From sequence record PZ445530.1: a DNA stretch of 64,000 nt. One strand, written 5' to 3'. Below, piece after piece: positions 1,093 through 64,000 of the stretch. Source of the DNA: a phage. The notes beneath the pieces are model-generated. The model made no database searches. It was not told the origin of the DNA and worked only from the letters and a program-made list of their open reading frames with translations. The position numbers and the translations under genes are program-made. Position 1 is the stretch's first letter; every line of letters starts with the position of its first letter.

Positions 1093-3516
1093 ATGAGCAT
1101 GTGGTCGTTCGATTTTGAGTCATCCGGTTTGCTGGAAGACCCAGATCTTTATTATCACTGCGGCCTGTTTAAAGAGCTGAATAAGAACCGTTTTATGCTG
1201 TTCCTTCCTCTGAATGACCGCACACACTACTCCGAGGAGGATATAGAGAAGGCCAAGAACTTTATTCTGGCAAAGAAAACTCTTTATAAGGATTTTGAAG
1301 TTCGCATAGCAGATTTTTCGGAGTTGGAAGGTTGGCTTACAGGAAATTCCGACTGGTCACCAACAGCTTTGAACTGCCATAACTGCTACAGTTATGACTT
1401 TATGCTGATGGAGAGATTATCCGGTATTCATTTTGATATGTTCCGTGATCCTAAATGTATGGGGACTATCAACGACCACCAGGTTAACCTGTTTGATACG
1501 TTGGCGATGAGCCGAATCTTGTGGCCTGATCGCCCTTTACCAAAAGGTTGTCCGGACTCCGTATTCAACCCGGTTACTAAGAAAATGCAGCCTGTTGGTC
1601 CTCACGGCCTTATGGCATGGGGCTACGCCCTTGGTAACCAGAAAGTTCAAATTGATGATTGGCGCGATCTTCCGTTGTGGAAGTATGTGGATCGTGTATT
1701 CGAGGACGTTATCATCCAGGAGCTACTCTGGAAAGAGCTGGTAGCGGAATCAAAAGGTGTATTCTACGGCAAATCTGACATGCAGAACTTTATGTACGAT
1801 CCTGCCAAAGAGAAGCCGAAAGGGTTCAAGAAGATCACCTGGAAGAACGCATTGCGCCGGGGTATGCTGCAACACTTCCTGATGGAGCTGCAGGCCCGTC
1901 AGGGTGTGTATTTTGACATAGATGGAGCTATTGCTTTACGTGACCGTTGCGATGCGTGGATGAAAGAAATCGCTGATCGTGTTGAACCACAACTGCCTTT
2001 AAAAGAGCTGTCAATGTCTCAGCGGCCCAAGTTCCCTGAAAAGCCGTTTAACCAAGATGGGACAATCTCTAATAATGGTTGGAAATGGTTAAAAGATAAG
2101 CTTGGCTATCCTGTGGACATGAGTGCTTTAGAGTTCAAAGCCCCACCTAAGCGAGCATTTACCTCTACAGGAGATGTCAGTAAGATGGGGATAAAATGGT
2201 GTGAAGAGATGGGCTGCAAAGACCACGATAAGATGGCTGATTTCTTGAGAGGCTATATTAAGGGCACCTCCACACCACAACCTTTACCTAAAGAGCTGAT
2301 GGATCAGGCAATAAGCGATCTGCAGCAGAAGCGAATGCCTGACTGCAAGATACCTATGAAAATCAGCAATCAGGACGATATTAAGCGATACCTGATCAGT
2401 GCTGGTTGGCTTCCGACAATGTGGAGAACTAAGGATGTAACTAAAGACAGCAAGAAGAAAGCTTTACCTGATGCAGATGTTGATGCACGAGTATATGCAT
2501 ATATGGACGAGCTTTTGGAGTCAGAGTATTGTGACCTAATTATCAACTTCTGGAACAAAACTGATGCTAAGTTCCAGACAACCGTGCACAAGTTCCGAAG
2601 CTTTCCTAACTCCGAAAGGATTAAAAAGGAAGTATTCGGGAAAATACGTAGAAAAGCTAGGGCACTTATTACTTCTCCGCAACTGAAAGATACGTTTGGA
2701 CACCTGTGTCCGAATCTTGAAAAATTGAACGGAGAGATGGCTAAAGATATCGTCTTATGGTTATCATTGCGAAACCGCAGATCGGTACTTGATCCAATCA
2801 AGGAGGATAAGGTTGACACTGGTCTTCTTAATCACCCACGTTTGAAGATTGACCATAAGCTTCCTGCTAAAAGCTCTGGATTAACAAACACTTCCAGACA
2901 GAAACACAGTATTTGTGCAAACATGCCTAAACCCTCTCCTAAAGTGGTTATGGGTAAAGAGATGCGTAGCTTGTGGGGTGTTCCTCCAGGATACTTTGAG
3001 ATCGGTATCGACGGGTCCAACTTAGAGCAGCTTATCGGGGCTTGGGGTGCCTTTGAGTTCGACAACGGCCTGTATTACGATGTTGTAAGTAACGGAGACG
3101 CACACCAAAACAATGCTGAGGCATATACAAAAGTAGCAGGCAGAGAGGTGTCCCGTAACGACGGTAAACCTATCACGTATGGGGTTATGTACGGGGCACA
3201 AAAAGATAAAGTTGCAGATATGCTGGACATCTCTCCAGAGTTGGGACAAAGGGTAATCGATGCGCTTTGGGATGCCAACCCTGGTCTTAAGGGCCGTAAA
3301 GAGGATCTGGAGAAATTCTGGGAAGCAACGGGTAAGAAGTTTATCTACTCTTTTGATGGTCATGCCATCTGGACCCGATCTAAACACTCTTTACTTAATG
3401 CATACCAACAGAATGGTGGTGCATCGCTGTGTGACTTGGTTGGGATACTTATGCACCACCAAATGGTGAAGCGTGGGTGGTACGATGAAGGTGTTCGTCG
3501 TATTATCTATTACCAT
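1093..3516 (+). CDS. DNA polymerase family A, exon 1 (3'-5' exonuclease + polymerase motifs A/B)
   Basis: Exo I-like FDFESSG at N-terminus; motif A-like GIDGSNLEQL; motif B-like KPITYGVMYG; ORF stops shortly after, before motif C; SD ggagaa upstream. Confidence 0.8.
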
Positions 3517-12699: not shown

Positions 12700-13260
12700 G
12701 GATTTCTAAAATGGATTTCCTCCTTTTGATATTTCACCGGGCTGGATATTTTAAAATTCTTAGAAAATCAGAAAATGGATCGAAAACTAAAATGGATTTT
12801 TCAGAGTAGGCGCGACAAGCTGAATAACTCATCCTATCGTTTGCACCATATTCCAGGCCACCATTATAGATTTTCCACACATGCTAACCTCCCTCTACTA
12901 GAACTTCCTCCACTTGCCCTTAACCTTCTATGGTAACAATCTAACCACTATCTTGAAGTTGCGGTGCAGCTTTCCAAGTACTCGATCTGTTTTTCATTTC
13001 ATGGCTTGGATTTTCTGAAAATTTTTCTCGATAAATTTCTCAGTACTCGATCTGTTTTTCGTTTTCTGAATCGGATTTTCTGGAAATCGTTCCGGATCTC
13101 GACCTGAAATTTTTGGGGACGAAATCGATTTTTCGTTTTCAGAAATGGATTTTTAAAATTTCTATATGGGAATATTTTATGGGATACTGTTTTATAGGAA
13201 ATTGTTACGGAGGGTAATTAGCATGCTAATTAAATTTATTAAATGCGAGGAGTTCTCATT
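12700..13260. repeat. Iteron-rich non-coding region (candidate origin/regulatory region)
   Basis: Repeated aaatggat(t) and ggattttctg motifs; direct repeat cagtactcgatctgtttttc x2; perfect palindrome taattagcatgctaatta at 13219-13236; no plausible ORF. Confidence 0.5.
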
Positions 13261-14684: not shown

Positions 14685-15089
14685 ATGAATAAGAACGTAC
14701 GCCGCATCATGAACGAACTGGCAAACGATGAAAAAATTATTGACATGCATTTATTCAACATTTGCCGCCGTTGTGTAACATATAACAACCGCGCCGCAAA
14801 AGCGCGTGAGATGAACGCAAAAGGCACCTTAAAGCCATTCCAGGTGGTGGTAAAGGCCATTAAAGATGTAACTAATACGGCAAACCAGGTACAGGGGAAC
14901 ACCAACGAGAGTACCAATATTGATCCGGCTTACATCATGAAACGGATCCGGACCTGCAAGAACAAAGAGCAAGTGTATAATATCATAGACTGGTTGGATT
15001 CTATGGGCGATGTGGTTTACAATAGGTTTTCTGCAGCTATCGAGATCCAGCTTGACAGGTTGGACGGTAAAGTACTGAAAACTTACTAA
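14685..15089 (+). CDS. hypothetical protein
   Basis: SD aaaggaaa; own promoter and leader hairpin. Confidence 0.55.
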   Translation: MNKNVRRIMNELANDEKIIDMHLFNICRRCVTYNNRAAKAREMNAKGTLKPFQVVVKAIKDVTNTANQVQGNTNESTNIDPAYIMKRIRTCKNKEQVYNIIDWLDSMGDVVYNRFSAAIEIQLDRLDGKVLKTY

Positions 15090-15137
15090 GTTTATTTTTA
15101 GATGGCCTTGACTTCAGGGCCATCAATAAAGTAAACT
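15090..15137 (+). promoter_or_regulatory. Hairpin-embedded promoter/operator unit (copy 1)
   Basis: tttattttta + gatggcc-ttgacttcag-ggccatc palindrome containing ttgact, then taaact 18 nt downstream. Confidence 0.5.
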
Positions 15138-15170
15138 AATCTCAACTAAGCGAAAAAAGGGGGCTTTAAG

Positions 15171-15290
15171 ATGAGCACTACACGCCAATACACAAAGGTA
15201 ACTATTATCGTTTGCGTTGTCGGTTACATCCTGGCGCAAATGTTAATGAGTAGCGCTAACAGTTTTGCAAAATTTTTCTTAAATTTTTAA
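15171..15290 (+). CDS. Small hydrophobic peptide (39 aa)
   Basis: SD aaaagggggc before ATG; hydrophobic core VTIIVCVVGYILAQML. Confidence 0.35.
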   Translation: MSTTRQYTKVTIIVCVVGYILAQMLMSSANSFAKFFLNF

Positions 15291-15369
15291 TTGACAAACT
15301 AACTTAGATCGATATACTTAAACACGTAAACGGGAAAACTTCCCAGAGCACACAAAAGGAGAAAACACC

Positions 15370-15711
15370 ATGACTACTATGACCGCCGCAGAAAAAGCTA
15401 TGCAGATCGCCGCGCTGAAAAAACAGATCGCAGACCTTGAGAACAAGATCGACAACTTTGAAATCGACGAGGACAAGTACGACGAAAACTATGATGAATG
15501 GTTAGACGAGATCTACGGCGAAATTATGATCGGAAACATTTCTTTTCTTCCGTCGCGTATCCTCAAGGAGCTAGATCCTATCGCTTACCGCTGCGGATTT
15601 AGCGACTACATCGACAGCCTGGATATTGAGGAAGATGAAGAATACCAGGAACTACAGACAGAGTTAGAAGAAGCAAAAGAAGAGCTTGCGGAGCTGGAAG
15701 AAAACGAGTAA
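15370..15711 (+). CDS. hypothetical acidic protein
   Basis: SD aaaggag; upstream promoter ttgaca and leader hairpin. Confidence 0.55.
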   Translation: MTTMTAAEKAMQIAALKKQIADLENKIDNFEIDEDKYDENYDEWLDEIYGEIMIGNISFLPSRILKELDPIAYRCGFSDYIDSLDIEEDEEYQELQTELEEAKEELAELEENE

Positions 15712-15759
15712 GATTATTTTTAGATGGCCTTGACTCCAGGGCCATCAATAAAGTAAACT
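15712..15759 (+). promoter_or_regulatory. Hairpin-embedded promoter/operator unit (copy 2)
   Basis: Near-identical to copy 1: gatggcc-ttgactccag-ggccatc + aataaagtaaact. Confidence 0.5.
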
Positions 15760-15800
15760 TTATACTGTTAACACTGAACTAATTCAGAGGAGTTAAAACC

Positions 15801-16046
15801 ATGGCAGCACTAATCACCAAATATTATGCCCCTACCAACACCAAAAGCGCCCGTATCATGGTAAAAGGCTTCGGACGTAAAAAGGTTTACACCTGGGATT
15901 ATGCCTTAGACATGGAAGACAACTACACCAACGCGATGACCGATTTTATTAATGATCTGAACACGCGGATCTTGACAAATTATAAAATTACCGATATTGC
16001 CTATATAGGGGAAGGCGGGATCTGTTTTGTCGGTATCGTCAAATAA
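15801..16046 (+). CDS. hypothetical protein
   Basis: SD agaggag. Confidence 0.5.
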   Translation: MAALITKYYAPTNTKSARIMVKGFGRKKVYTWDYALDMEDNYTNAMTDFINDLNTRILTNYKITDIAYIGEGGICFVGIVK

Positions 16047-16095
16047 GCTGTTTTTTCGGTGGTCCTGGTAGCAGGGCCATCTATAAAGATAGTTT
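16047..16095 (+). promoter_or_regulatory. Variant hairpin-promoter unit
   Basis: ttttttcggtggtcctg-gtag-cagggccatc + tataaagat; diverged copy of the 15090 unit. Confidence 0.35.
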
Positions 16096-16121
16096 ATCAA
16101 CACAATGAAAGGAGAAAGTAC

Positions 16122-16469
16122 ATGATCAGCGGGGCAAGTTTTATTATTGGCGCTATTGCTACGGCTTTAATTGTAAACAAGATCCAATCTAAAAACGAAA
16201 AAGAGAGCAACGCGCTCACAGAATACCCATTTTGGGTATTCAACGACAATGAAGACTACATTATCAAGTACAAGAATGAGAAGGGCGACCAGGTAACACC
16301 GCGACCGATCCCGGCCTACAAGATGCAAGAAACACTATACCGCCTAAAGGCTGGAGGCGCAAAAATCGTAGACTTTTGGGGATATGATTGCAAGGATCAG
16401 GAGGTTATAAAACGGCGTATCCGGGCTATTCAGGCCAATATTGAAGTTAGCAAGGGGGGGAATATATGA
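16122..16469 (+). CDS. hypothetical protein with N-terminal membrane anchor
   Basis: SD aaaggag before ATG 16122; hydrophobic N-terminus. Confidence 0.5.
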   Translation: MISGASFIIGAIATALIVNKIQSKNEKESNALTEYPFWVFNDNEDYIIKYKNEKGDQVTPRPIPAYKMQETLYRLKAGGAKIVDFWGYDCKDQEVIKRRIRAIQANIEVSKGGNI

Positions 16470-16663
16470 AGATTAATTTTGAGAAGATTGTAAAGCGATC
16501 TCATGATTCCGAAGAGCTGCCGGAACGACGCCAACGTAACAATAAACTGAATAAGCCAAAAAGATTTGGAAAGATCTGGCGAAATCATTATGATCGTAAA
16601 TTGCCTGGCCTACTTTTGGAACGTGAACGACAGGCAGAACGATACCGCCATAAAGACAAATAA
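16466..16663 (+). CDS. Small basic protein
   Basis: SD aagggggg; Arg/Lys-rich. Confidence 0.5.
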   Translation: MKINFEKIVKRSHDSEELPERRQRNNKLNKPKRFGKIWRNHYDRKLPGLLLERERQAERYRHKDK

Positions 16664-16671
16664 CAACCAAC

Positions 16672-16701
16672 GCCCCCGCCATTGTGCGGGGCTTTTTATT
16701 T
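16672..16701 (+). terminator. Intrinsic terminator
   Basis: ccccgc-cattgt-gcgggg hairpin followed by ctttttattt. Confidence 0.6.
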
Positions 16702-16822
16702 CTATCCTACGAATAGCGCCCCTGGTTGGCCCTGTAAGCGCCAAAAAGGCCCCACCTATGCAATCGCCCCCTTTAACCTGAAAACATCGCCCAGGGCCGT
16801 TTCATGGCGTTAAAAATATCAT

Positions 16823-16850
16823 TGACATCGTCAACAGGTTAGCTATACTA
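16823..16850 (+). promoter_or_regulatory. sigma70-type promoter
   Basis: ttgaca - 16 nt - tatact. Confidence 0.55.
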
Positions 16851-16881
16851 ACCACATCAAAGAGAGAAAGGAGTAAACGCC

Positions 16882-17142
16882 ATGCGTAAATTAAAAAATT
16901 TTGATAAAGTTGATGTTGTCCTGAATAATTTTTACTACTGCAACAACAAGGCCATTTGGTGGCGTGATAGTTCCACCGATAAAGTCAAGGCGCGCTTTCT
17001 CCAGGGGCACTGGCAAGGCCGCCCAGTGATTAAAATCATGGGGCAATTGGTAGCGTTTAAAAATTGCCGCCGTGTTGATGACGTTGAGGAGATTTTAAAC
17101 ATTTTGCGCCACAATAATTTAAAAAATAGTGTTGACAAGTAA
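16882..17142 (+). CDS. hypothetical protein
   Basis: SD aaaggag. Confidence 0.5.
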   Translation: MRKLKNFDKVDVVLNNFYYCNNKAIWWRDSSTDKVKARFLQGHWQGRPVIKIMGQLVAFKNCRRVDDVEEILNILRHNNLKNSVDK

Positions 17143-17216
17143 ATCTCAATAAGTATAATTAAACACACAGGCGGGAAAACTTACCGCCACTAACAAAGAA
17201 AACAGGAGAAAATATC

Positions 17217-17297
17217 ATGACCACCGTTAACATTACCACAGGTTACAATTTATCTTTCGACGTGCTGACCGATGAACAAAAAAGAAAAAGCTATTGA
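17217..17297 (+). CDS. Short leader ORF (26 aa) at the canonical cassette start, out of frame with the downstream long ORF
   Basis: Promoter ttgaca..tataat, leader hairpin ggcgg-gaaaactta-ccgcc and SD caggag all point to ATG 17217; frame ends at TGA 17295-17297 after an A6 run. Confidence 0.3.
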   Translation: MTTVNITTGYNLSFDVLTDEQKRKSY

Positions 17298-17841
17298 AAT
17301 GGTCCGCGAAAGAGAAGAACACAGCGGGGATAACTTTTTTGCAGAAAGTGTAATTGAAGACTACAAAGAACATATCTTTCCAGAGTATGGCCTTGAAGAT
17401 ACCAAGGTACATTGGTCCGGCTTTTGGTGCCAGGGCGACGGCGCGTCAATCAGTGCGGAAAACGTGGATTTAGAAAAATTCTTGCGTAAAGTCAAGTCTC
17501 TGACTAAATTCCGCTCAATTCGTCACTTGTTCGGCACAATGCACGATGGCGAGCTATCCGCAAGTGTTGAGCGTGATCCATATAGCCGCTATAGTCACGA
17601 AAACACTGTAAGCGGGTACATCGATACTACATGGCTAGACCTGACAGCCAAGCAAGAAAGTAAGGTTGAAGAGCTGGAAGAGTTGATCACCGAGAACGTA
17701 CGGGAACTATCCCGCAAGGTTTACGTAGACCTGGAGCAAGCTTATCTTGAACAATTTACTACCGAAAACCTGATCGGCCTTATCGAGGCCAATGATTGGC
17801 GGTTTGATGTGGATGAATATGGAGAGATGAGTTTTTCATAA
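17272..17841 (+). CDS. hypothetical protein (start uncertain: 17272, 17299 via TGAAATG coupling, or 17217 if the A6 run is an indel)
   Basis: Long ORF; no SD of its own at 17272. Confidence 0.45.
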   Translation: MNKKEKAIEMVREREEHSGDNFFAESVIEDYKEHIFPEYGLEDTKVHWSGFWCQGDGASISAENVDLEKFLRKVKSLTKFRSIRHLFGTMHDGELSASVERDPYSRYSHENTVSGYIDTTWLDLTAKQESKVEELEELITENVRELSRKVYVDLEQAYLEQFTTENLIGLIEANDWRFDVDEYGEMSFS

Positions 17842-17931
17842 ATAAAGTGTTGCAATAATCTAAAAACCTGCTATATTAAAACTCAAGGGGCAAGACGTTT
17901 GCCCCCCACACAAAACAAAGAGGAAAACATC

Positions 17932-18312
17932 ATGAAAAACACTACTAAAGCTATTGACACCGTCATGTTTAACCTGGTTACCTTTCGCGAGGATATGAAA
18001 GATCTTCCACGTGAAACAGTGTGCGATCACATTGAAAACTATCGCAAACTAATCAAAGAGTTGCCTTTAAAACGTGATCAGTATGCGGCTAACGCCATGC
18101 TTAATGCCATGATCAAAAAGATGATCCAGTGTGATTTAACTCTGGCCTATGACTATGCGGGTGGTCGTTTTGCAGTATACAATCAGCCCGTGCCCGGTAT
18201 GGGCACCACCGAAGAATTGCACGCGTTAAATCTGAAGCAAGATGTATGGGATAACATGCCCCGCGTGGTGGTGTGGGCAGAAAGCGGAAAGATTTACGGC
18301 GATAATTTTTAA
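17932..18312 (+). CDS. hypothetical protein
   Basis: SD aagagga; leader hairpin ggggcaa-gacg-tttgcccc. Confidence 0.55.
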   Translation: MKNTTKAIDTVMFNLVTFREDMKDLPRETVCDHIENYRKLIKELPLKRDQYAANAMLNAMIKKMIQCDLTLAYDYAGGRFAVYNQPVPGMGTTEELHALNLKQDVWDNMPRVVVWAESGKIYGDNF

Positions 18313-18376
18313 TCAGGTAACAGGCGGCATATTTGCCGCCTTATTGTTAAACAGAGCTGCAAAAGAGGTACATAGA

Positions 18377-18748
18377 ATGGAATTTATTATTTTGGCTGTA
18401 GTAGTTGCCTTGTTCAACGCCTGGATAGCTGGCAAAATAGGTAGATCCGCTTTTCTATGGTTTGTTATATCTATTTTCCTGGGAGTGGTTGCAACCATTG
18501 TACTAGTTATCCTTGCAATTGTTGACAAGGATAATAATAAGAAGGGTAAAGTATTTTCCGACCTGTATGACGCCCAAACTTTTGTTAACGCCTATTATAG
18601 TGATCTTCCGGTCTCCTTGCGCTGCAGCCTGGCGCAACAAGTTTTTGATGAGGCTAAAACCAGAGATCAAGCCCATGAGATATGTTTAACTGAGGCGGAT
18701 CGCCTATTTGAGAGGAATAGAAAATATGTGGGCCAGCCGTTTAAATAA
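18377..18748 (+). CDS. Membrane protein (two predicted TM segments)
   Basis: SD aaagagg before ATG 18377; hydrophobic stretches. Confidence 0.5.
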   Translation: MEFIILAVVVALFNAWIAGKIGRSAFLWFVISIFLGVVATIVLVILAIVDKDNNKKGKVFSDLYDAQTFVNAYYSDLPVSLRCSLAQQVFDEAKTRDQAHEICLTEADRLFERNRKYVGQPFK

Positions 18749-18971
18749 TACCACGTTAATTAATCCCTTTAGTGAAGATTTGAAGCCAGCCGCCTGGCGT
18801 GATGGATTCAATAACGAACGCTTTATTTTCAAGCCTGATCTTGAGGAATTTTATAACAATGGATCGAACAACAGCGGAGATAATTTTTCTTGGGATGTGC
18901 GTGGTGATGGTACTCCTGGGGGCCATTGTAAACCACGTCACTACTACCAGGAGGAAAGGGGGAGACGATGA
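18726..18971 (+). CDS. hypothetical protein
   Basis: ORF; weak SD. Confidence 0.4.
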   Translation: MWASRLNNTTLINPFSEDLKPAAWRDGFNNERFIFKPDLEEFYNNGSNNSGDNFSWDVRGDGTPGGHCKPRHYYQEERGRR

Positions 18972-19087
18972 CAACCAAGGATAAGCCCCGTACCGATAAG
19001 GCGCGCCGGGTTATGGTATGGCTTGAGATCATCGCCCTTGAAATATTGCTAGGCGTAGGGATGTACTTTATCGCTGTAAGTAACTAA
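18968..19087 (+). CDS. Small membrane peptide (39 aa)
   Basis: SD aggagg; hydrophobic WLEIIALEILLGVGMYFIAV. Confidence 0.3.
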   Translation: MTTKDKPRTDKARRVMVWLEIIALEILLGVGMYFIAVSN

Positions 19088-19091
19088 GAAC

Positions 19092-19120
19092 GGCCCCCGA
19101 TCATGGGGGCCTATCTTTTT
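19092..19120 (+). terminator. Intrinsic terminator
   Basis: ggccccc-gatcat-gggggcc hairpin followed by tatcttttt. Confidence 0.6.
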
Positions 19121-19229
19121 AAAAAATTTCCCTTTCAGGGTGTTGCAATCCGGTCCGCAATATGGATAATAACAATCAACGGGGAAACATCCCCGCCACA
19201 CAAACAAAAGCCCGAAGAGGAGAAAGAAG

Positions 19230-19429
19230 ATGAGCAACAATATCCGCGTTATTAACTTCAAAAAGAAGAAAAAATTGCCGTGCTGATTGACGGTCAAGAA
19301 ATCTTCAAGGGCGACTATGAAGATCATCAAACGGCGATTAGTATCACTCGCGTGATTGGTTATCATAATTTCTACCCCCAAGGCGCTGAGGCAGCAGTTA
19401 AACGAATCAAAGAGATTGTAGGCCTGTAA
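19230..19429 (+). CDS. Small protein gene interrupted at an A6 run (frameshift or indel)
   Basis: Canonical start 19230 reads 18 codons to TGA; the remaining 52 codons continue in the -1 frame from the A6 run at 19269-19274. Confidence 0.35.
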
Positions 19430-19430
19430 A

Positions 19431-19478
19431 ATTTATTTTTAGATGGCCTTGACTTCAGGGCCATCGATAAAGTAAATT
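19431..19478 (+). promoter_or_regulatory. Hairpin-embedded promoter/operator unit (copy 3)
   Basis: tttattttta + gatggcc-ttgacttcag-ggccatc + gataaagtaaatt. Confidence 0.5.
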
Positions 19479-19522
19479 TAAACCCTGTTAAAATACCACG
19501 CAGTTAACAAGGAGTGATAGAC

Positions 19523-19822
19523 ATGTTTATCCAGGCTAATAATCTTTATTTCTTTGATGGTCAGATCGTAGATGGTGTGGAAGTGGAGATCACCGGGTGC
19601 CCTGGTGGTCAGGCTATGACTTTCCGGAATAATGCCTTTGATGATTCTCATATCGTTATGAGAATGGAAGTTACGAAGCTGGACGACAAGAAAACACTTA
19701 TTGACTATTCTGTGAAAGATCATCCAGACTACCACATGATCTATGGTGATTTGTGCATTGTTGACCGTGACAAGGTGGGCGGCATTGTGATCGCTATTGT
19801 GAACGATGTTTTCTCAAACTAA
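19523..19822 (+). CDS. hypothetical protein
   Basis: SD aaggag before ATG 19523. Confidence 0.5.
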   Translation: MFIQANNLYFFDGQIVDGVEVEITGCPGGQAMTFRNNAFDDSHIVMRMEVTKLDDKKTLIDYSVKDHPDYHMIYGDLCIVDRDKVGGIVIAIVNDVFSN

Positions 19823-21045: not shown

Positions 21046-21225
21046 ATGGCTATTATTGCAAAGACTGAGATCGTAGGCTTAGATTCTATTCTCCTCGCAT
21101 ATGAGGAAGCTATAGAAATGTATGTGGTTTCCTATGGTGAGTATATTCGTGAATATAAATCTATTGATCTGGCTTTTGAATGTTATATTCGCCAGGTAAA
21201 TAAAGCATATGATGATTATCGTTAA
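21046..21225 (+). CDS. hypothetical small protein (59 aa)
   Basis: Full cassette: ttgaca..tagaat promoter, gggggg-caacaag-cccccc hairpin, CA-rich leader, SD aagagga. Confidence 0.4.
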   Translation: MAIIAKTEIVGLDSILLAYEEAIEMYVVSYGEYIREYKSIDLAFECYIRQVNKAYDDYR

Positions 21226-21310
21226 AATAGTTTGACAACAATTACAAATCGGGTAGAATGTATTTCGTAGGGCGGCAATGATGCCGCTCACAACTAAAAG
21301 AGAGATCATC

Positions 21311-21505
21311 ATGGCGCTTAAAAAACTAACAAGCAATACTCGTTGGGATGAAATCGACGGGGAAGTTTACATTTTTGCCCGTAAACCAGGGGATCAAAAA
21401 TGGTCAAAGGCTTTTACTTGCCATCCTGCAACAATAGATCTGATAAAAAGTCAAGGACTACGTGAAGCAGTAGCAAGAAGTTTACTGATCCCTTGTAAAA
21501 ATTAG
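21311..21505 (+). CDS. hypothetical small protein
   Basis: Promoter ttgaca..tagaat, hairpin gcggca-atga-tgccgc, SD aagagag. Confidence 0.45.
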   Translation: MALKKLTSNTRWDEIDGEVYIFARKPGDQKWSKAFTCHPATIDLIKSQGLREAVARSLLIPCKN

Positions 21506-21582
21506 TTTGACAACAGTCAACAATCTGGTAAAGTGTACTACATAGCGCGGGAATACTTCCCGCCATTAATGAGGGTAATTTA

Positions 21583-21720
21583 ATGAAAACTTTCAACGCA
21601 ACAGCCTCGACAATTGGTTATATTATTACAGTACAAGCCGTGGATCTGGTAGCAGCAGCAAACAAGATTAAAAAGATGATTCCGCCAGGTAGTGAATTTT
21701 CCGTTTGGGAAGTAAAATAA
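21583..21720 (+). CDS. hypothetical small protein (45 aa)
   Basis: Promoter ttgaca; hairpin gcgggaa-tac-ttcccgc; leader cattaatgagggta shared with next gene. Confidence 0.35.
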   Translation: MKTFNATASTIGYIITVQAVDLVAAANKIKKMIPPGSEFSVWEVK

Positions 21721-21803
21721 ATCTTGACAATAATTTATTACTTGATAGACTGTATTTCGTAGTGCGGGGAAATAAGGCAACGCCCATTAATGAGGGTAGA
21801 ATC

Positions 21804-22504: not shown

Positions 22505-24935
22505 CTGCTCTTCTCCTACCATAAACGGCCCTACCTGGCAAGTGGAATAATTGACTAGCCATCAATCCCACATACTGTACAAATATACATGGAAAATAAC
22601 TATTGCATAATTTTTCATTGTGTGGTAGCAAGTCCATTTTTACCCGTTTTCTCTCCCAAAAGTGCACGTAATGCCGCTATTGCACAAATTTTAACCTGAT
22701 GCACATCTCCAATATCTTGTCAACAACTAAAAATCTTTATAAGTCATACACTTACACAGCATCGAAAGCGTGTTCTACGCGAAAAATCGAGTATAACTAT
22801 AGCCGCCAGATCTCAGAATTCACGTACGCACGCCATTCTATAGCCTGCAAAGTATTTATTCCAACCACAGAATAACGGAATAGTCAATACCTGCATAAAA
22901 TAATTATTCGTGCAAACTGCATAACATAAATCAGCTCAGGTGTCAACATTTTTCGTAAACAGTCCGAAATTATAACGATGAGTTATCATAAACAGAGAAA
23001 TCTTTAGTCGTCTAATGTTTACTGTACATTACTATACTGACTGGAATCATTAGATGACTAAGAGAAAGATAAGAAATAATTAATAATGTAATTATTTTAC
23101 CTGTAACAATAAGGCAACTATGCAAACGAATGGCATGGCGCGACGGAGTCGCGACATAATATAAAAGCAGTAACCATCACCCCCGTGATAGTTTGTCTGC
23201 AAACTATTAATCAGATCATAGTTGCCTTGTATTTAGTTAATCATGACATAACAAGCAAGGCAACTATAGATCTGCTAATAGTTGCCCTGCTTTTATATTA
23301 TGTCATGCTAATTATAATCAGTGCGATTATTGTCATGTATAATTATTGTCATGCAAACGAATGGCATGGCTGATTATCGGTGTGTAAACAGTCAATCATG
23401 TAAATGGTTAGCATGTGAACAATCAGGAATGTAAACAATCCAGTGTGTAAACTAATAGGTGTGTAAAAGTGTCATGTTGTGTCAGTTAGGTCACATTATG
23501 TCAGACAAGTTTTTCTCCTCTTTGTCAAGTGCTGCATGAAAAATTTACAAACTGGTATGGTAGCATTTTTGCGGCCCTGTTTACATTCAGTAATGTATGT
23601 ATAATCCTTGTTGTGTGGGCGTTTAGACGTCTAGACGGTTGGAAGTCCACAGGTCAATATCTAATCTATCGGCTGCTAACTATATCCCACACAAATAGCA
23701 AGAAATATGATTGTTATATGCGTAAACTGTAACTCATGTTATCAATCCCTGTATGGATCGCCAGTGGTGCGCATAATGGGTATTATGTTAAATTGCCCGT
23801 AATGATAACTATTCTCACAATGATAGGTATTCTCATTCATCCACATAAAATAGGTTGCAAATGTTGTGCCACTGTGTGAACGGCCTGGCCTATTAATTTG
23901 CCTCACTGCCTTGATATTTGAGAATTGTTATAAGAATGAGAAGTATTCCCATTTCGTCCGCCTGGCAGCACTCCTGTAGGTCAGGTCAAAATCGTGGTAG
24001 AATTGGGCCTGTTCAGATATTTCTGGCTGACTCTTCAGGTCTGTGTGGGAAAAGCCAACCTCTCCGGCGGGGCAGGGGGTCATGACGGGAAAATTGCAGG
24101 TCAATTAAAAATTTACGTGGTGTATGAAGCGCTCTTCAGGTAAGGCATGTATTATGGGATGAAACCCGCTTCAGGCAATGATATTTGTGGGTGTGATATT
24201 TGCTGGAAAGCCAGATATGACGGGACTCCCGGCGGGGATGGGGTAGTACAGACAGGGAAAATATGAGAATGTAGTTGGGGAAATTGATCAGACAGGTAGA
24301 GTATGGAATATGTTACAAGTATGTTAAATATGGAGGTTGAATATCTGTAGGATTTGTGTGTAAAATCAAAGACTTAAGGGGTGTTGTGGTATTTTCTATA
24401 AATAATTCAAGTTTAATAGGCAATATTTGTCTCTATCCGTTTTGTGTGGTAAACAGATTCAGATTAGATTGGTTTACAAGTGTATACATAATATACAAAT
24501 TAAAGATACAAGAAACCCCCCTCCCCCCTTCGGCTACCATTCACCTTTTCCTCTGACTGGTACTTAAACACTTATTCAGACTCTTCAGGTTATCACCCAT
24601 ATATCATATGGCAGTGACTGGTGTCCTCCGGCCCCTCTTTCGTCACCCGTCCGCTTCGCCATGCTAATGCCATAGCCAATGGTTCGGTTGTTCACCCTGT
24701 TCACTCAGGTGTATCTCCATACCCCTTCAAACCGAAGAGAACAGAAAACCCGAATTACTCGGTAAAAGAAAAGAGAAGAACTTAATTTTATCAGGATAGG
24801 CAAGAATGTCAAGGCATGACTGCTCACTAAACAAGCAAACAGTCATGTGTGGAAGGTAAGTGATTGTGGTGGTGGGAAATTTAGTTGAAAGATGTGTTAT
24901 AGGTGCTTCCAGCACTTTAGCCGGGCAGCTAATTG
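22505..24935. repeat. Repeat-rich non-coding region at the convergence of plus and minus transcription
   Basis: No convincing ORF; inverted repeats ggcaactat/atagttgcc; tgcaaacgaatggcatggc x2; tgtaaaca-type iterons 23380-23470; CTCTTCAGG x4; duplicated tccggcggggcagggg unit. Confidence 0.5.
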
Positions 24936-58417: not shown

Positions 58418-58768
58418 ATGAAAGATGGGGATAAGCTGCTATATCTTAAAGTCCCCCTTGAAATACTATCTATGTCAAAAGTTTTGAATGACACAACTGG
58501 GGAGGTTGTTGTTCTTGACTTGTATGACAAGATCGTATACTGCTACCTGCACAACTGGTATAAGCTTGGAGGAAATTCACGCTTCACACCAAGCACAAGG
58601 AAAATTGCAGCAGATGTTGGGATAAAGAAAACAAAAGCAGCAGCGTGCGTTAAAACTTTAGAATGTGCAGGAGTGGTTGAAACATCCACACAAGGGAGAG
58701 GTAAAAGATGCACATTTTCCAAAGTTTTGCCACCAGAAGAAGTTATTCGGATGTCAACAACTGGTTAG
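58418..58768 (+). CDS. Putative HTH DNA-binding protein
   Basis: HTH-like TRKIAADVGIKKTKAAACVKTLECAGVV; SD ggagaa; sits next to palindromic array. Confidence 0.4.
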   Translation: MKDGDKLLYLKVPLEILSMSKVLNDTTGEVVVLDLYDKIVYCYLHNWYKLGGNSRFTPSTRKIAADVGIKKTKAAACVKTLECAGVVETSTQGRGKRCTFSKVLPPEEVIRMSTTG

Positions 58769-58843
58769 ACCAGTAAAAACTTAAATATCTGTACTATAAG
58801 GATTCGTATGTTTTATGTTCGCCATGGAACGGATACTATTAAC

Positions 58844-58924
58844 TGTCCGTGATACGGACACTACTGTCCGTCACGCGGACACATCTGCCCGTAATACGGA
58901 CACTAACTGTCCGTGATACGGACA
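58844..58924. promoter_or_regulatory. Array of four tandem 17-bp palindromic operator-like sites
   Basis: tgtccgtgatacggaca (58844-58860, 58908-58924) plus variants tgtccgtcacgcggaca and tgcccgtaatacggaca, 21-22 bp apart. Confidence 0.55.
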
Positions 58925-59429
58925 CATAAAGAATATAACTAAAATAACTAAATAATAAAAAATAAAAGATCTAGTACTTATGGTACTAAGTACATATACT
59001 TAACTTATGTAGAATATACTAGATCCTAAGTACCATGTTTTAAATTTATTACTTACTATGGGCAGTGTCGGCCCTTCATTGGCACTCGCCTACGAGGGGC
59101 GAGATGCCGGGCCTCCTTGGTGCACACAATAACAGAAGTTCATACATGCAGGTCTGTTAACATGTGTGGGAGCGAAGCGATAGCGCAGGCCAAAGGCCGA
59201 GCACTGATGTGGACCACCGACGAAAGCTTGCCAGCGCCGTAAGGAGTCGGTTGAGAGTCTCCCGCGCGAGCTTGGATGAAGTTTATGTGTGGAAACTGAC
59301 AAGAAGGCCCCTAAATCGCTCCACAGCTATATAAACTATACCAGGTAATGCAATCGCACCAGTTTGATAGAAAAGCTCGTTACAAAGCGATACAGTGAGT
59401 TTTTCTATAACTTGAAGAGGGGGGCAGCT

Positions 59430-61305: not shown

Positions 61306-61380
61306 GCCCTGTTAGCTTAGTGGATAAAGCAGCGGCCTTCTAAGCCGTTGACACTGGTTCGAGTCCAGTACGGGGTGCCA
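61306..61380 (+). tRNA. tRNA-Arg (anticodon TCT)
   Basis: Cloverleaf by hand: acceptor gccctgt/acggggt, T-loop ttcgagt, anticodon loop cttctaa, encoded CCA. Confidence 0.6.
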
Positions 61381-61384
61381 AATT

Positions 61385-61471
61385 GGGGAGTTATCCCGTA
61401 GAGGTAGCGGTGTAGACTGTAAATCTATTGTCATTACGACTCGGGTGGTTCGACTCCACCACTTCCCACCA
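61385..61471 (+). tRNA. tRNA-Tyr (anticodon GTA), class II long variable arm
   Basis: Acceptor ggggagt/acttccc, anticodon loop ctgtaaa, long variable arm, T-loop ttcgact, CCA. Confidence 0.55.
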
Positions 61472-61585
61472 AATTTATAGTTTTAAATGCATAAATCATA
61501 CAGATAATGGCATTGATATTTATCGTCGTTTATACTAGTCACTAACTGCTCGAAAATCAGTGTCATTATCAGTATTGTTTATAAA

Positions 61586-61676
61586 TGAGGGTAGGGAGCA
61601 ATGGTGCTCAAGCGGTCTTGAAAACCGTCCCGTTGAGGATGACTCGATGATGGTTCGATTCCATTACCCTCAGCCA
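61586..61676 (+). tRNA. tRNA-Ser (anticodon TGA), class II
   Basis: Acceptor tgagggt/accctca, anticodon loop cttgaaa, long variable arm, T-loop ttcgatt, CCA. Confidence 0.5.
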
Positions 61677-61774
61677 TATTGTTGACCTTGTAATTAAGCG
61701 AAAGCCGGAAGCAGAACCGGATTATCAAATGTTACAGTCGTCATCGCCGACTAGCAACATGGTCAACATACTGA

Positions 61775-61871
61775 GCTAGGTAAGCCCTTTGGCAAGGGCG
61801 AGGATTTTTAATCCTGAAAATAGACGAGGTAGTCGTTGAATACATAGGTGGTTCGATTCCATCACCTAGCA
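61775..61871 (+). ncRNA. Aberrant tRNA-like element (97 nt)
   Basis: Acceptor gctaggt/acctagc and T-arm ggtgg-ttcgatt-ccatc are canonical, but anticodon arm folds as aggat-tttta-atcct (5-nt loop) with about 30-nt extra arm. Confidence 0.3.
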
Positions 61872-61879
61872 CCTTTTTT

Positions 61880-61955
61880 GCTGATGTAGCACAATTGGTA
61901 GTGCAATTGATTTGTAATCAATAGGTTGCAGGTTCAAGTCCTGCCATCAGCACCA
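61880..61955 (+). tRNA. tRNA-Thr (anticodon TGT)
   Basis: Acceptor gctgatg/catcagc, anticodon stem attga/tcaat with loop tttgtaa, T-loop ttcaagt, CCA. Confidence 0.6.
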
Positions 61956-61956
61956 T

Positions 61957-62031
61957 GGCCCTGTAGCTGGAAGGTTCAAGCAAGCGACTCATAATCGCCA
62001 GACGGTGGTTCAATTCCACCCAGGGCCACCA
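61957..62031 (+). tRNA. tRNA-Met or Ile2 (anticodon CAT)
   Basis: Acceptor ggccctg/cagggcc, anticodon loop ctcataa, T-loop ttcaatt, CCA. Confidence 0.6.
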
Positions 62032-62043
62032 AATAATAAATAC

Positions 62044-62119
62044 TCCGCGTAGCTCAGCTTGGTAGAGCGCCTGATTTGGGATCAGGAGGTCGAGTGTTCG
62101 AATCACTCCGTGGAGACCA
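62044..62119 (+). tRNA. tRNA-Pro (anticodon TGG)
   Basis: Acceptor ctccgcg/cgtggag, anticodon stem cctga/tcagg with loop tttggga, T-loop ttcgaat, CCA. Confidence 0.6.
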
Positions 62120-63223: not shown

Positions 63224-63648
63224 TGTCTAAGATTTACGGACCGTGTTCTGAAAAGCAGAAGATGATCCTCGAAAACGATGCAGATATTTTGGTAATCGGC
63301 GGTGCCGCAGGGTCTGGCAAGTCGTTCCTCTTGCAATTGATGCCACTTAAAATTATTGATGACCCCCACAGCTCTGTGGTTATGTTCCGAAGAACAACCC
63401 CGCAGTTGGAAGGTGAGGGTGGACTATGGCCTAAAGCGGTAGCTATTTATAGTGATCTGCCTGAAAACATTAAGCCAAAGTTCAGAGAGAAGGATCATAA
63501 GTTCATTTTTCCACGGTTTGATCCGAACACTGGCAAGTGGGATAGAAGCAAAAAGGGAGCTGTTGTAAAATACTGCCACATGGAGTATGTACAAGATAAG
63601 CTTAACCATCAAGGGCTTGAGTACACCATGGTTTGCTTCGATGAGGGT
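63223..63648 (+). CDS. Terminase large subunit, exon 1 (ATPase N-terminus)
   Basis: Walker A VIGGAAGSGKS; Walker B MVCFDEG at exon end; stop codon lies inside group I intron. Confidence 0.7.
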
Positions 63649-64000
63649 TAATTTGTAGCTCTCGTAAAACCTCCCTAATTGCGGGGAAATCTTTACTATT
63701 AATACCACCAACCTGTCATGGTAACATGATAGAGGCTTCGAAGAGAGATCGAAGGTATGGTAACAGTGTGTTAATTTAGATAATCCGCAGCGAAGCATCC
63801 GAGAGGATGAACGTTCAACGACTAGTCGAAAGACGTAGAATCAAGCGATTCGAAACGGGAGGATAAGCGGTTGTTGTCGCTTATAAGATATAGTCTGGTC
63901 TGCATGGAGACATGCAGCTGCCTGAAAATGGCGGGGCAAGACTAGCGACCTTGCCCGAACATAAACGACACAATTCGAATGGGAGCAGATAGACTATCTG
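63649..64000 (+). mobile_element. Group I intron interrupting terminase large subunit (3' end beyond window)
   Basis: P aattgcggggaaa 63677-63689, Q taatccgcagcgaag 63781-63795 (identical 15-mer to pol intron), R gttcaacgacta 63813-63824, S aagatatagtc 63885-63895; no long ORF inside. Confidence 0.65.

Follow-up and report, generated by a model that had tools for sequence, protein, structure and literature searches.

Repetitive extragenic palindromic (REP) elements of enterobacteria are thought to shield upstream mRNA from 3' exonucleases. In phage T7, early RNA is cut co-transcriptionally at five sites (PMC4858673). Substrates of RNase III span about two helical turns, and their internal loops limit cutting to one strand and leave protective 3' hairpins (PMC1540722). 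Another kind of early-region element, the promoter-early stem-loop (PeSL), was described in the T4-type phages RB49, phi1, PST and nt-1 (Arbiol et al. 2010, PMC2839356; Comeau et al. 2014, PMC4122927). The stem-loop was proposed to attenuate upstream read-through in RB49 and phi1, and a PeSL stem-loop lowered reporter expression (PMC2839356). Here we describe four copies of a repeat (units 1, 2, D and 3), each directly following a stop codon, in a 64,000-nt stretch of DNA from an rV5-like phage (sequence record PZ445530.1; the whole stretch is called the window below). Phages of this type are widely isolated for biocontrol and therapy, and nearly all of their early regions are annotated as 'hypothetical'. 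We report that + strand RNA of every copy adopts one shared two-tier hairpin, and that the variation among related phages points to selection on this fold.

The repeat units and their fold

Over 5.5 kb, the region containing the repeats shared 90–96% identity with more than 110 GenBank records of rV5-like coliphages (genus Vequintavirus), and its closest GenBank match was phage A51.2 (96.2%). The units lie in a + strand block of small early genes that corresponds to rV5 open reading frames (ORFs) 194–177, located on the − strand of rV5. A repeat search found a 51-nt family at 15087, 15709 and 19428 (units 1, 2 and 3) with a mutual identity of 92–100%; a fourth, diverged copy at 16044 (unit D) was 69% identical. 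The 24-nt core GATGGCCTTGACTTCAGGGCCATC occurs at 15101–15124, 15723–15746 (with one mismatch) and 19442–19465, in each case on the + strand, and had 0 matches in 100 dinucleotide shuffles. A TAA stop codon directly precedes every copy (15087–89, 15709–11, 16044–46 and 19427–29), and in all four units the pairing of the hairpin starts with the last base of this codon. The three core occurrences and the diverged copy thus bore out the original prediction, made from the sequence alone, of a unit repeated after stop codons.

On the + strand, RNA from each of the four copies folded into the same two-tier hairpin of ~50 nt, with energies of −23.5 to −28.2 kcal/mol and z-scores of −5 to −7, and the hairpin was retained when folded within a 150-nt context. 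The upper stem of 10 bp, GAUGGCCUUG/CAGGGCCAUC, includes one U-G pair and is capped by a tetraloop. It is followed by an internal loop of 2 nt on the 5' side and 3 nt on the 3' side, and by an A/U lower stem of 7–13 bp, in which the upstream U-run pairs with AAAGUAAACU, the '−10-like' segment. The units had been described as a perfect 7-bp palindrome with a −35 box inside its loop. The palindrome is real, but when G-U pairs are allowed the stem is 10 bp long and the loop 4 nt. Because the TTG of the '−35' lies in the paired stem, only ACNN remains in the loop, so that the claimed placement held for AC and two variable bases and failed for TTG.

Folding of the − strand gave poorer results, and for unit D the z-score there was −0.8 compared with −6.6 on the + strand. 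DNA parameters likewise yielded a much weaker fold; unit D reached −7.6 kcal/mol (z −2.0) and lost its lower stem. A structural descriptor (loop 4, upper stem 10, internal loop 2×3) found these four sites and no others on the + strand of the 64-kb window; the same descriptor matched shuffled sequence about once per shuffle, both strands summed.

All four hairpins are on the + strand. Unit 1 (15089–15137; −25.0 kcal/mol, z −7.2, covariance-model score 80.2 bits) lies between the homologues of rV5 ORF194 and ORF193. Its lower stem is 15089–15098/15128–15137, its internal loop 15099–15100/15125–15127, its upper stem 15101–15110/15115–15124 and its tetraloop 15111–15114. Unit 2 (15711–15759; −23.5 kcal/mol, z −5.2, 78.2 bits) lies between the ORF192 and ORF191 homologues, with an upper stem at 15723–15732/15737–15746 and the tetraloop ACUC. 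Unit D (16043–16097; −28.2 kcal/mol, z −6.6, 72.3 bits) lies between the ORF191 and ORF190 homologues; its upper stem (16058–16067/16072–16081) contains two G-U pairs, its tetraloop is GUAG, its lower stem measures 13 bp, and promoter-like hexamers are absent. Unit 3 (19429–19479; −24.7 kcal/mol, z −5.0, 78.7 bits), between the ORF179 and ORF178/177 homologues, has its upper stem at 19442–19451/19456–19465, and its outer lower-stem pair is A-U where unit 1 has G-C.

Selection on the fold

For comparison we assembled 48 copies (33 distinct) from the window, nine GenBank genomes, and metagenomic and IMG/VR contigs carrying the unit. Across the 33 distinct copies, 98.3% of pair cells were paired on the + strand versus 87.0% on the − strand, and the mean minimum free energies were −23.5 and −14.7 kcal/mol, respectively. 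When the register was slid by 1–3 columns, pairing fell to 33–58% of cells. Every wobble cell (84 of 84) was G-U on the + strand. Changes on both sides were seen in four lower-stem pairs (G-C/A-U/G-U, U-A/C-G, U-A/A-U/G-U and A-U/U-A); three upper-stem pairs varied on one side, giving G-U in every case.

We then placed the polymorphism on the structure, using a 6.2-kb alignment of 10 genomes in which 16.5% of columns were polymorphic. None of the 80 upper-stem columns varied, versus 13 expected (P = 5e-7), whereas 8 of the 16 loop columns did (P = 2e-3); 7 of 80 lower-stem columns were polymorphic. Across copies, loop positions 3–4 read UU, UC, AC, AU, CC or GC. As whole 51-nt windows the units were not outliers in nucleotide diversity, except for unit 3 (5th percentile); the signal is therefore where the variation falls and not its amount.

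The diverged copies showed the same pattern. The upper-stem differences of unit D (A-to-G, C-to-U and U-to-C) are confined to the 5' arm, and pairing with the unchanged 3' arm is kept; moreover, two alleles of unit D differ by one compensated pair, C-G/U-A. The most distant lineage found, IMGVR_UViG_3300010279_000001 (L019), was 82% identical, and its unit 1 has a 5-nt loop, a 4-nt internal loop on the 3' side, and the changes U-G to U-A and G-C to G-U. Despite these changes it folded at −22.6 kcal/mol (z −6.4). We concluded with confidence that the strand-specific RNA fold is the feature kept by purifying selection at the four cistron boundaries.

Distribution and existing annotation

A covariance model built from the copies and run with filters off found the four sites in the window and none further, and on the complete 137,947-bp rV5 genome it found exactly four, all in gene sense. 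BLAST searches with the unit matched about three places per record in 121 records, which belonged to Vequintavirus without exception. As an exact pattern, the upper-stem core matched one IMG/VR contig. Searching IMG/VR and metagenomes with the invariant 3' arm CAGGGCCATCNATAAAG produced many isolated chance matches, and when the covariance model was applied to the IMG/VR and metagenome pattern matches, Vequintavirus contigs alone were retained. Rfam returned no family for the units, either at gathering thresholds over the whole window or in an E-value run over 14800–19800; the best weak match over a unit was rhtB, with 23 bits against a gathering score of 55.

The proteins flanking the units are all ORFans without known function, and one nearby protein is T7 gp1.1-like. 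The cistron upstream of unit 1 (14685–15089, + strand) encodes 134 aa of unknown function, and a homologue search restricted this protein to the genus Vequintavirus. The 81-aa ORFan with unit 2 and unit D on its two sides (15801–16046, + strand) was also found in unrelated phages, without synteny. At a Phapecoctavirus locus reached via a macro-domain neighbour, the genes were tightly packed and there was no unit match. The homologue of rV5 ORF179 upstream of unit 3 (19199–19429) has an in-frame stop near 19253 and a GTG at 19280 as its sole remaining start; the remainder of 49 aa matches positions 19–66 of the PHROG profile, and the gene may be truncated in this phage. We also observed that 17 GenBank records labelled 'Campylobacter phage' (MG0656xx, host C. 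jejuni) were 93–99% identical to E. coli rV5-like phages over the region of the units; the host labels of those records look wrong.

Existing annotations of the element disagree. The units appear in neither the promoter list nor the ARNold/MFOLD terminator list of the rV5 genome paper. The automated annotation of phage Murica (KT001917) calls unit D and unit 3 'terminator', and in phage Gotham units 2 and 3 were annotated 'promoter' by PhagePromoter. The same element is thus a terminator in one GenBank record and a promoter in another, and a selected mRNA hairpin would be the correct label. Searching the literature for the motif sequence and for transcriptomes of Vequintavirus gave no relevant result, and no transcript-end or cleavage data for rV5-like phages were found in the literature searched. 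The kind of element is known, namely intercistronic processing hairpins and PeSL-like composite cassettes, and the finding overturns nothing known; the literature searchable here describes neither this family and its genus nor its precise two-tier form with overlapping promoter hexamers.

A proposed processing or 3'-protection hairpin

We propose, with moderate confidence and by analogy, that the units are intercistronic RNase III-type processing or 3'-stability hairpins that act in the mRNA sense. Host RNA polymerase would produce read-through early transcripts carrying the hairpin between cistrons, where it would serve as an intercistronic processing and 3'-end-protecting signal. Most likely it would be a substrate of the host RNase III, cut in or beside the internal loop; the upstream ORFan mRNA would then end capped by the 10-bp hairpin, and the downstream cistron would be freed, much as happens at the five early RNase III sites of T7. 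In units 1–3, a moderate sigma-70 promoter may be formed by TTGAC, at the stem top, and TAAACT, in the 3' arm of the lower stem; were it active, each unit would both end one message and restart the next at the boundary of an ORFan cassette, in the manner of the PeSL cassettes of T4-type phages. Owing to their near-identity, the copies also serve as homologous recombination joints. The units would mark four precise places at which to look for RNA ends, as well as the cassette boundaries where ORFans are lost or exchanged.

The original prediction had offered, as its RNA reading, a processing or stability hairpin, and this reading was supported by the strand specificity of the G-U pairs, the compensatory changes, the restriction of variation to the loop, and a geometry like that of T7 RNase III sites. 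In 4/4 copies a 10-bp upper stem and a 7–13-bp lower stem, coaxial across the 2×3 loop, give the length of an RNase III substrate. The asymmetric 2×3 loop lies 10 bp below the tetraloop in every copy, compared with about 11 bp from the hairpin loop in RNase III substrates. One pair below the loop, units 1–3 have a U-A/U-G tandem like the canonical distal box, and unit D has U-A/C-G, although the register is ambiguous.

Several observations weigh against this proposal. The family has just four copies, and its substitutions represent few independent events. With the R1.1 model substrate, cleavage is suppressed by a G-C pair at the proximal-box position adjoining the scissile bond, and a G-C pair at proximal-box position 2 prevents binding (PMC1540722). 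A G-C pair adjoins the internal loop of our units and is a possible RNase III antideterminant, with a register not fixable by computation; the RNase III step is itself argued from geometry. The 3' arm CAGGGCCAUC and AUAAAG are invariant even in unit D, which exceeds what the fold needs, and such sequence conservation would also fit a sequence-specific RNA-binding factor. Lastly, the loop AC that completes TTGAC and the TAAACT are invariant in units 1–3 of the 10 genomes while some of the 5' bases that pair with TAAACT vary, which hints at a second (promoter) constraint.

Promoter-like hexamers

The original prediction of −35-like and −10-like hexamers was correct for units 1–3, each of which has TTGACT, an 18-nt spacer and TAAACT or TAAATT, with 9/12 consensus positions matched. 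These hexamers are found on the + strand at 15108–15137 (unit 1) and 15730–15759 (unit 2), both with TAAACT, and at 19449–19478 (unit 3), with TAAATT. We built a position weight matrix from the 26 promoters in section 1 of Table S4 of the rV5 paper (training median 17.5 bits). Units 1, 2 and 3 scored 12.5, 12.5 and 11.0 bits and ranked 58th–72nd of 127,938 positions; at their threshold, 59 sites were found in the window versus ~12 in shuffles. Unit D scored −2.0 bits. In unit 1 of L019, an extra base in each loop stretches the hexamer spacer to 20, and the sixth −35 base varies through all four nucleotides.

Promoter activity of units 1–3 is moderately probable as predicted from these hexamers. 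The promoter part of the earlier DNA reading is thus plausible for units 1–3, but a promoter is not what unites the family, because unit D and the L019 variant depart from it.

A more tentative idea joins the two layers. It is conceivable, though we consider it doubtful, that the same 48 bases are dual-coded, acting as an RNA processing/3'-protection hairpin that closes the upstream ORFan and as a DNA sigma-70 promoter that restarts the next. If true, each of the small early genes would amount to a cassette that is insulated, expresses itself and can be moved by recombination, and PeSL-type shuffling would extend beyond T4-like phages and be linked to T7-type RNase III processing.

The window also contains strong early sigma-70 promoters in paralogous families (15291–15344 and 17132–17185; 21224–21279, 21499–21554 and 21716–21771). 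The conserved part of these families extends into the transcribed leader, for example as the GGGAAAACTTCCC hairpin just after the −10. Such leader hairpins may be 5' stabilising hairpins that complement the 3' hairpins of the units.

Recombination between copies

Starting just downstream of unit 1 and ending with unit 2, a 622-bp repeat period (15138–15759, + strand) comprises a 39-aa ORF (15171–15290), a promoter (P192; 15291–15318), a 113-aa ORF (15370–15711) and unit 2. Phage ime, phage ECP26 and one IMG/VR contig (L002) have, in place of units 1 and 2, one hybrid that is flanked on the left like unit 1 and on the right like unit 2. These genomes are without the intervening cassette of 39-aa ORF, promoter P192 and 113-aa ORF, and the loss is exactly 622 bp. 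Phages ime and ECP26 differ in the allele of the upstream gene. The cassette was found in 112 records, compared with 117 for the next gene.

Exchange was also visible at other copies. Units 1 and 2 of phage V18 have private variants in common, and its unit D is a recombinant of two alleles, one supplying the left flank and the other the right. In phage Gotham, unit 2 has a left flank of the unit 3 type. The hybrids in ime, ECP26 and L002, the V18 unit D and the Gotham unit 2 are recombinants of the kind described for PeSLs, and we concluded that the copies recombine and delete the cassette between them. Concerted evolution of the loop bases was weakly supported (permutation P = 0.03 for matching positions and 0.11 for identical pairs, n = 7).

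Unit 1 of phage Gotham (L005 5385–5425) has a 5-nt deletion of GGGCC in the 3' arm, which destroys the upper stem and the promoter spacing. Either a dispensable copy has truly been lost here, or the hairpin caused a compression in the sequencing.

Alternative explanations

The alternative that survives best, although we judge it unlikely, is that units 1–3 are chiefly early sigma-70 promoters of the PeSL type, whose stem-loop attenuates upstream read-through, and that unit D is a decayed copy that retains the attenuator only. Units 1–3, and only these, have the linear layout published for PeSLs: a stop codon, an AT-rich run, the −35, an overlapping stem-loop with G-T pairs, the −10 and a Shine-Dalgarno sequence (PMC2839356). 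Their hexamers (TTGACT, 18-nt spacer, TAAACT) follow a T-rich UP-like run, their matrix scores of 11.0–12.5 bits fall in the tail where real sites (59) exceed shuffled ones (~12), PhagePromoter calls two of them in Gotham, and across the 10 genomes TTGAC and TAAACT are fixed while loop positions 3–4 and the 5' bases that pair with the −10 vary. However, a 9/12 match with an 18-nt spacer is weaker than every promoter listed by the rV5 authors, who omit these sites. Unit D folds yet scores −2 bits, the L019 variant folds yet has a spacer of 20, and the sixth −35 base takes any of the four nucleotides. Furthermore, intrinsic termination is unlikely without a U-tract after the hairpin.

We think it quite unlikely that the units are instead a sequence-specific RNA–protein site, bound by a phage or host RNA-binding regulator and not by a general double-strand RNase. 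This explanation would account for the identity of CAGGGCCAUC, the following AUAAAG and the preceding U-run in the four paralogues, an identity that extends to unit D and to the lineage at 82%. It could also come from gene conversion between copies, however, and no candidate protein was found, the flanking ORFans being without RNA-binding domains.

That the units act at the DNA level only, as recombination joints or as single-stranded DNA hairpins at which replication or recombination pauses, and have no RNA role, seems to us very unlikely. Recombinant junctions do fall within the units, there is the weak evidence of concerted loop-base evolution within genomes, and single-stranded DNA also tolerates G-T pairs. 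But recombination requires identity and not a fold, so that the compensatory changes and the loop-restricted variation are unexplained. With DNA parameters, unit D forms just the weak structure without a lower stem reported above, and the deletion is seen in just ~3–5 of 117 genomes.

The operator-overlapping-promoter reading given in the original prediction was not supported, and we regard it as highly improbable; under it, a dimeric phage or host protein would bind the palindrome GATGGCC-N10-GGCCATC and control the embedded promoter. A perfect 7-bp inverted repeat does surround the −35-like hexamer in three copies, with arms invariant in the 10 genomes. Yet the two half-sites are not conserved symmetrically as duplex DNA: unit D alters the left arm only (GGTGGTC versus right GGCCATC) by A-to-G and C-to-T transitions, keeping the RNA pairing and losing the DNA symmetry. 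Departures from the palindrome are one-armed and compatible only with RNA pairing, which makes an operator unlikely. The 84 of 84 + strand G-U wobble cells, and the much weaker folds of the − strand and with DNA parameters, argue in the same direction. An operator would have no need of the paired conservation that continues into the A/U lower stem, and the half-site centres are 17 bp apart and so would not lie on one helix face.

Least credible is that the units are intrinsic (Rho-independent) terminators, as two copies are annotated in Murica (KT001917) and as a stable hairpin immediately 3' of a stop codon might suggest, because the upper stem is followed by AAUAAAGUAAACU (AAUAAAG) and not by the U-tract of a G+C-rich terminator, the U-run is 5' of the stem on both strands, the full hairpin is A/U at its base, with no more than UUUAU after it, a consensus terminator scan called 0/4 copies, and the rV5 ARNold/MFOLD list omits them. 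With a T-run 5' of the stem and an A-rich run 3' of it on both strands, a U-tract follows the stem on neither, just as the original prediction had stated in denying a classical terminator. Separately, a likeness of GCCCUGAAG on the − strand to the lambda boxB was rejected, as it has the wrong strand and a different stem.

Other features of the window

Elsewhere in the window, four tandem units of 21–22 nt at 58840–58925 each contain the palindrome TGTCCGT-N4-CGGACA. The array lies directly downstream of a 116-aa ORF (58418–58768) and is followed by a very AT-rich run (58926–58975). We take this ORF to be the homologue of rV5 ORF79, annotated as a GntR-like regulator, by its size and map position. 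The array looks like an iteron or operator array and is possibly an origin of replication.

A group I intron occupies 63639–63917 on the + strand (Rfam RF00028, 84 bits, full-length model match), and a cluster of five tRNA genes lies at 61306–62116, also on the + strand (Rfam RF00005, 35–80 bits). Three direct repeats with a 65-nt period, 74–79% identical, were found at 12968–13153, where genes are sparse, upstream of the early block. A long near-perfect palindrome (23213–23272; −24 kcal/mol as RNA) lies where the + strand early block ends and gene orientation switches.

Comparison with known systems

Like REP elements, the units are repeated imperfect palindromes that lie just after stop codons within operons. 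REPs, however, are host elements with hundreds of copies, another consensus and a single stem. No REP-like match was obtained, in that Rfam was empty for the units and the motif was absent outside Vequintavirus in the IMG/VR and metagenome scans.

The RNase III sites of T7 and T3 resemble the units more closely, being a small paralogous family of ~50-nt hairpins between early genes transcribed by host RNA polymerase. The names and coordinates of the T7 sites R0.3, R0.5, R1 and R1.3 follow Dunn and Studier 1983. The R1.1 hairpin was identified by its GCAA loop (PMC1540722). When folded, five T7 early intergenic hairpins had 9–13-bp upper stems with G-U pairs, 3–5-nt loops, asymmetric internal loops and A/U-rich lower stems, and the one at the R1 position has a 2×3 internal loop, as in the rV5 units. 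The T7 hairpins at the R0.5 and R1 positions adjoin the upstream stop codon, whereas the rV5 units always start in it. Promoters share intergenic spacers with some of the T7 hairpins (PMC4858673, PMC1540722). In addition, the T7 'E. coli C promoter' has its annotated start (record 3113) within the hairpin at the R1 position (record 3099–3152; L153 2700–2753), and this overlap is a precedent for a host promoter overlapping a processing hairpin.

A search of 6.6 kb of T7 with the rV5-unit model placed its top three matches at the hairpins taken as R1, R0.3 and R1.1, with E-values of 0.45 to 1.9 that were not significant; the likeness is therefore one of architecture and not of homology. In the T7 early region the structural descriptor, which is too strict for more, matched a single site, at the position taken as R0.5. 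The rV5 units also differ from the T7 sites in that their lower stem is longer and almost purely A/U, a G-C pair stands next to the internal loop, and the family, for which cleavage is predicted, is limited to one genus of myoviruses.

With PeSLs the units have in common that they are repeated composite cassettes in ORFan-rich early regions, in which an upstream stop codon in an AT-rich run and sigma-70 hexamers are combined with an overlapping stem-loop containing G-T pairs, followed by a Shine-Dalgarno sequence and ATG. PeSL copies likewise recombine, deleting or swapping ORFans (PMC2839356, PMC4122927). Several ORFs neighbouring the units are noted in the rV5 record as resembling RB49 ORFs. 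The differences are also clear. PeSL promoters match the consensus and are many per genome, whereas the rV5 family has four copies, with a 9/12 match and an 18-nt spacer, and one of them (unit D) is without a promoter. PeSL stems are short G/C runs said to terminate, whereas the rV5 hairpin is a two-tier structure of 20–23 bp without a U-tract; and the phages that carry it belong to the Vequintavirinae and are not T4-like. If RNase III dependence and promoter activity should both prove true, the units would add a second, independent case of the PeSL principle and provide a compact natural 'insulator' part.

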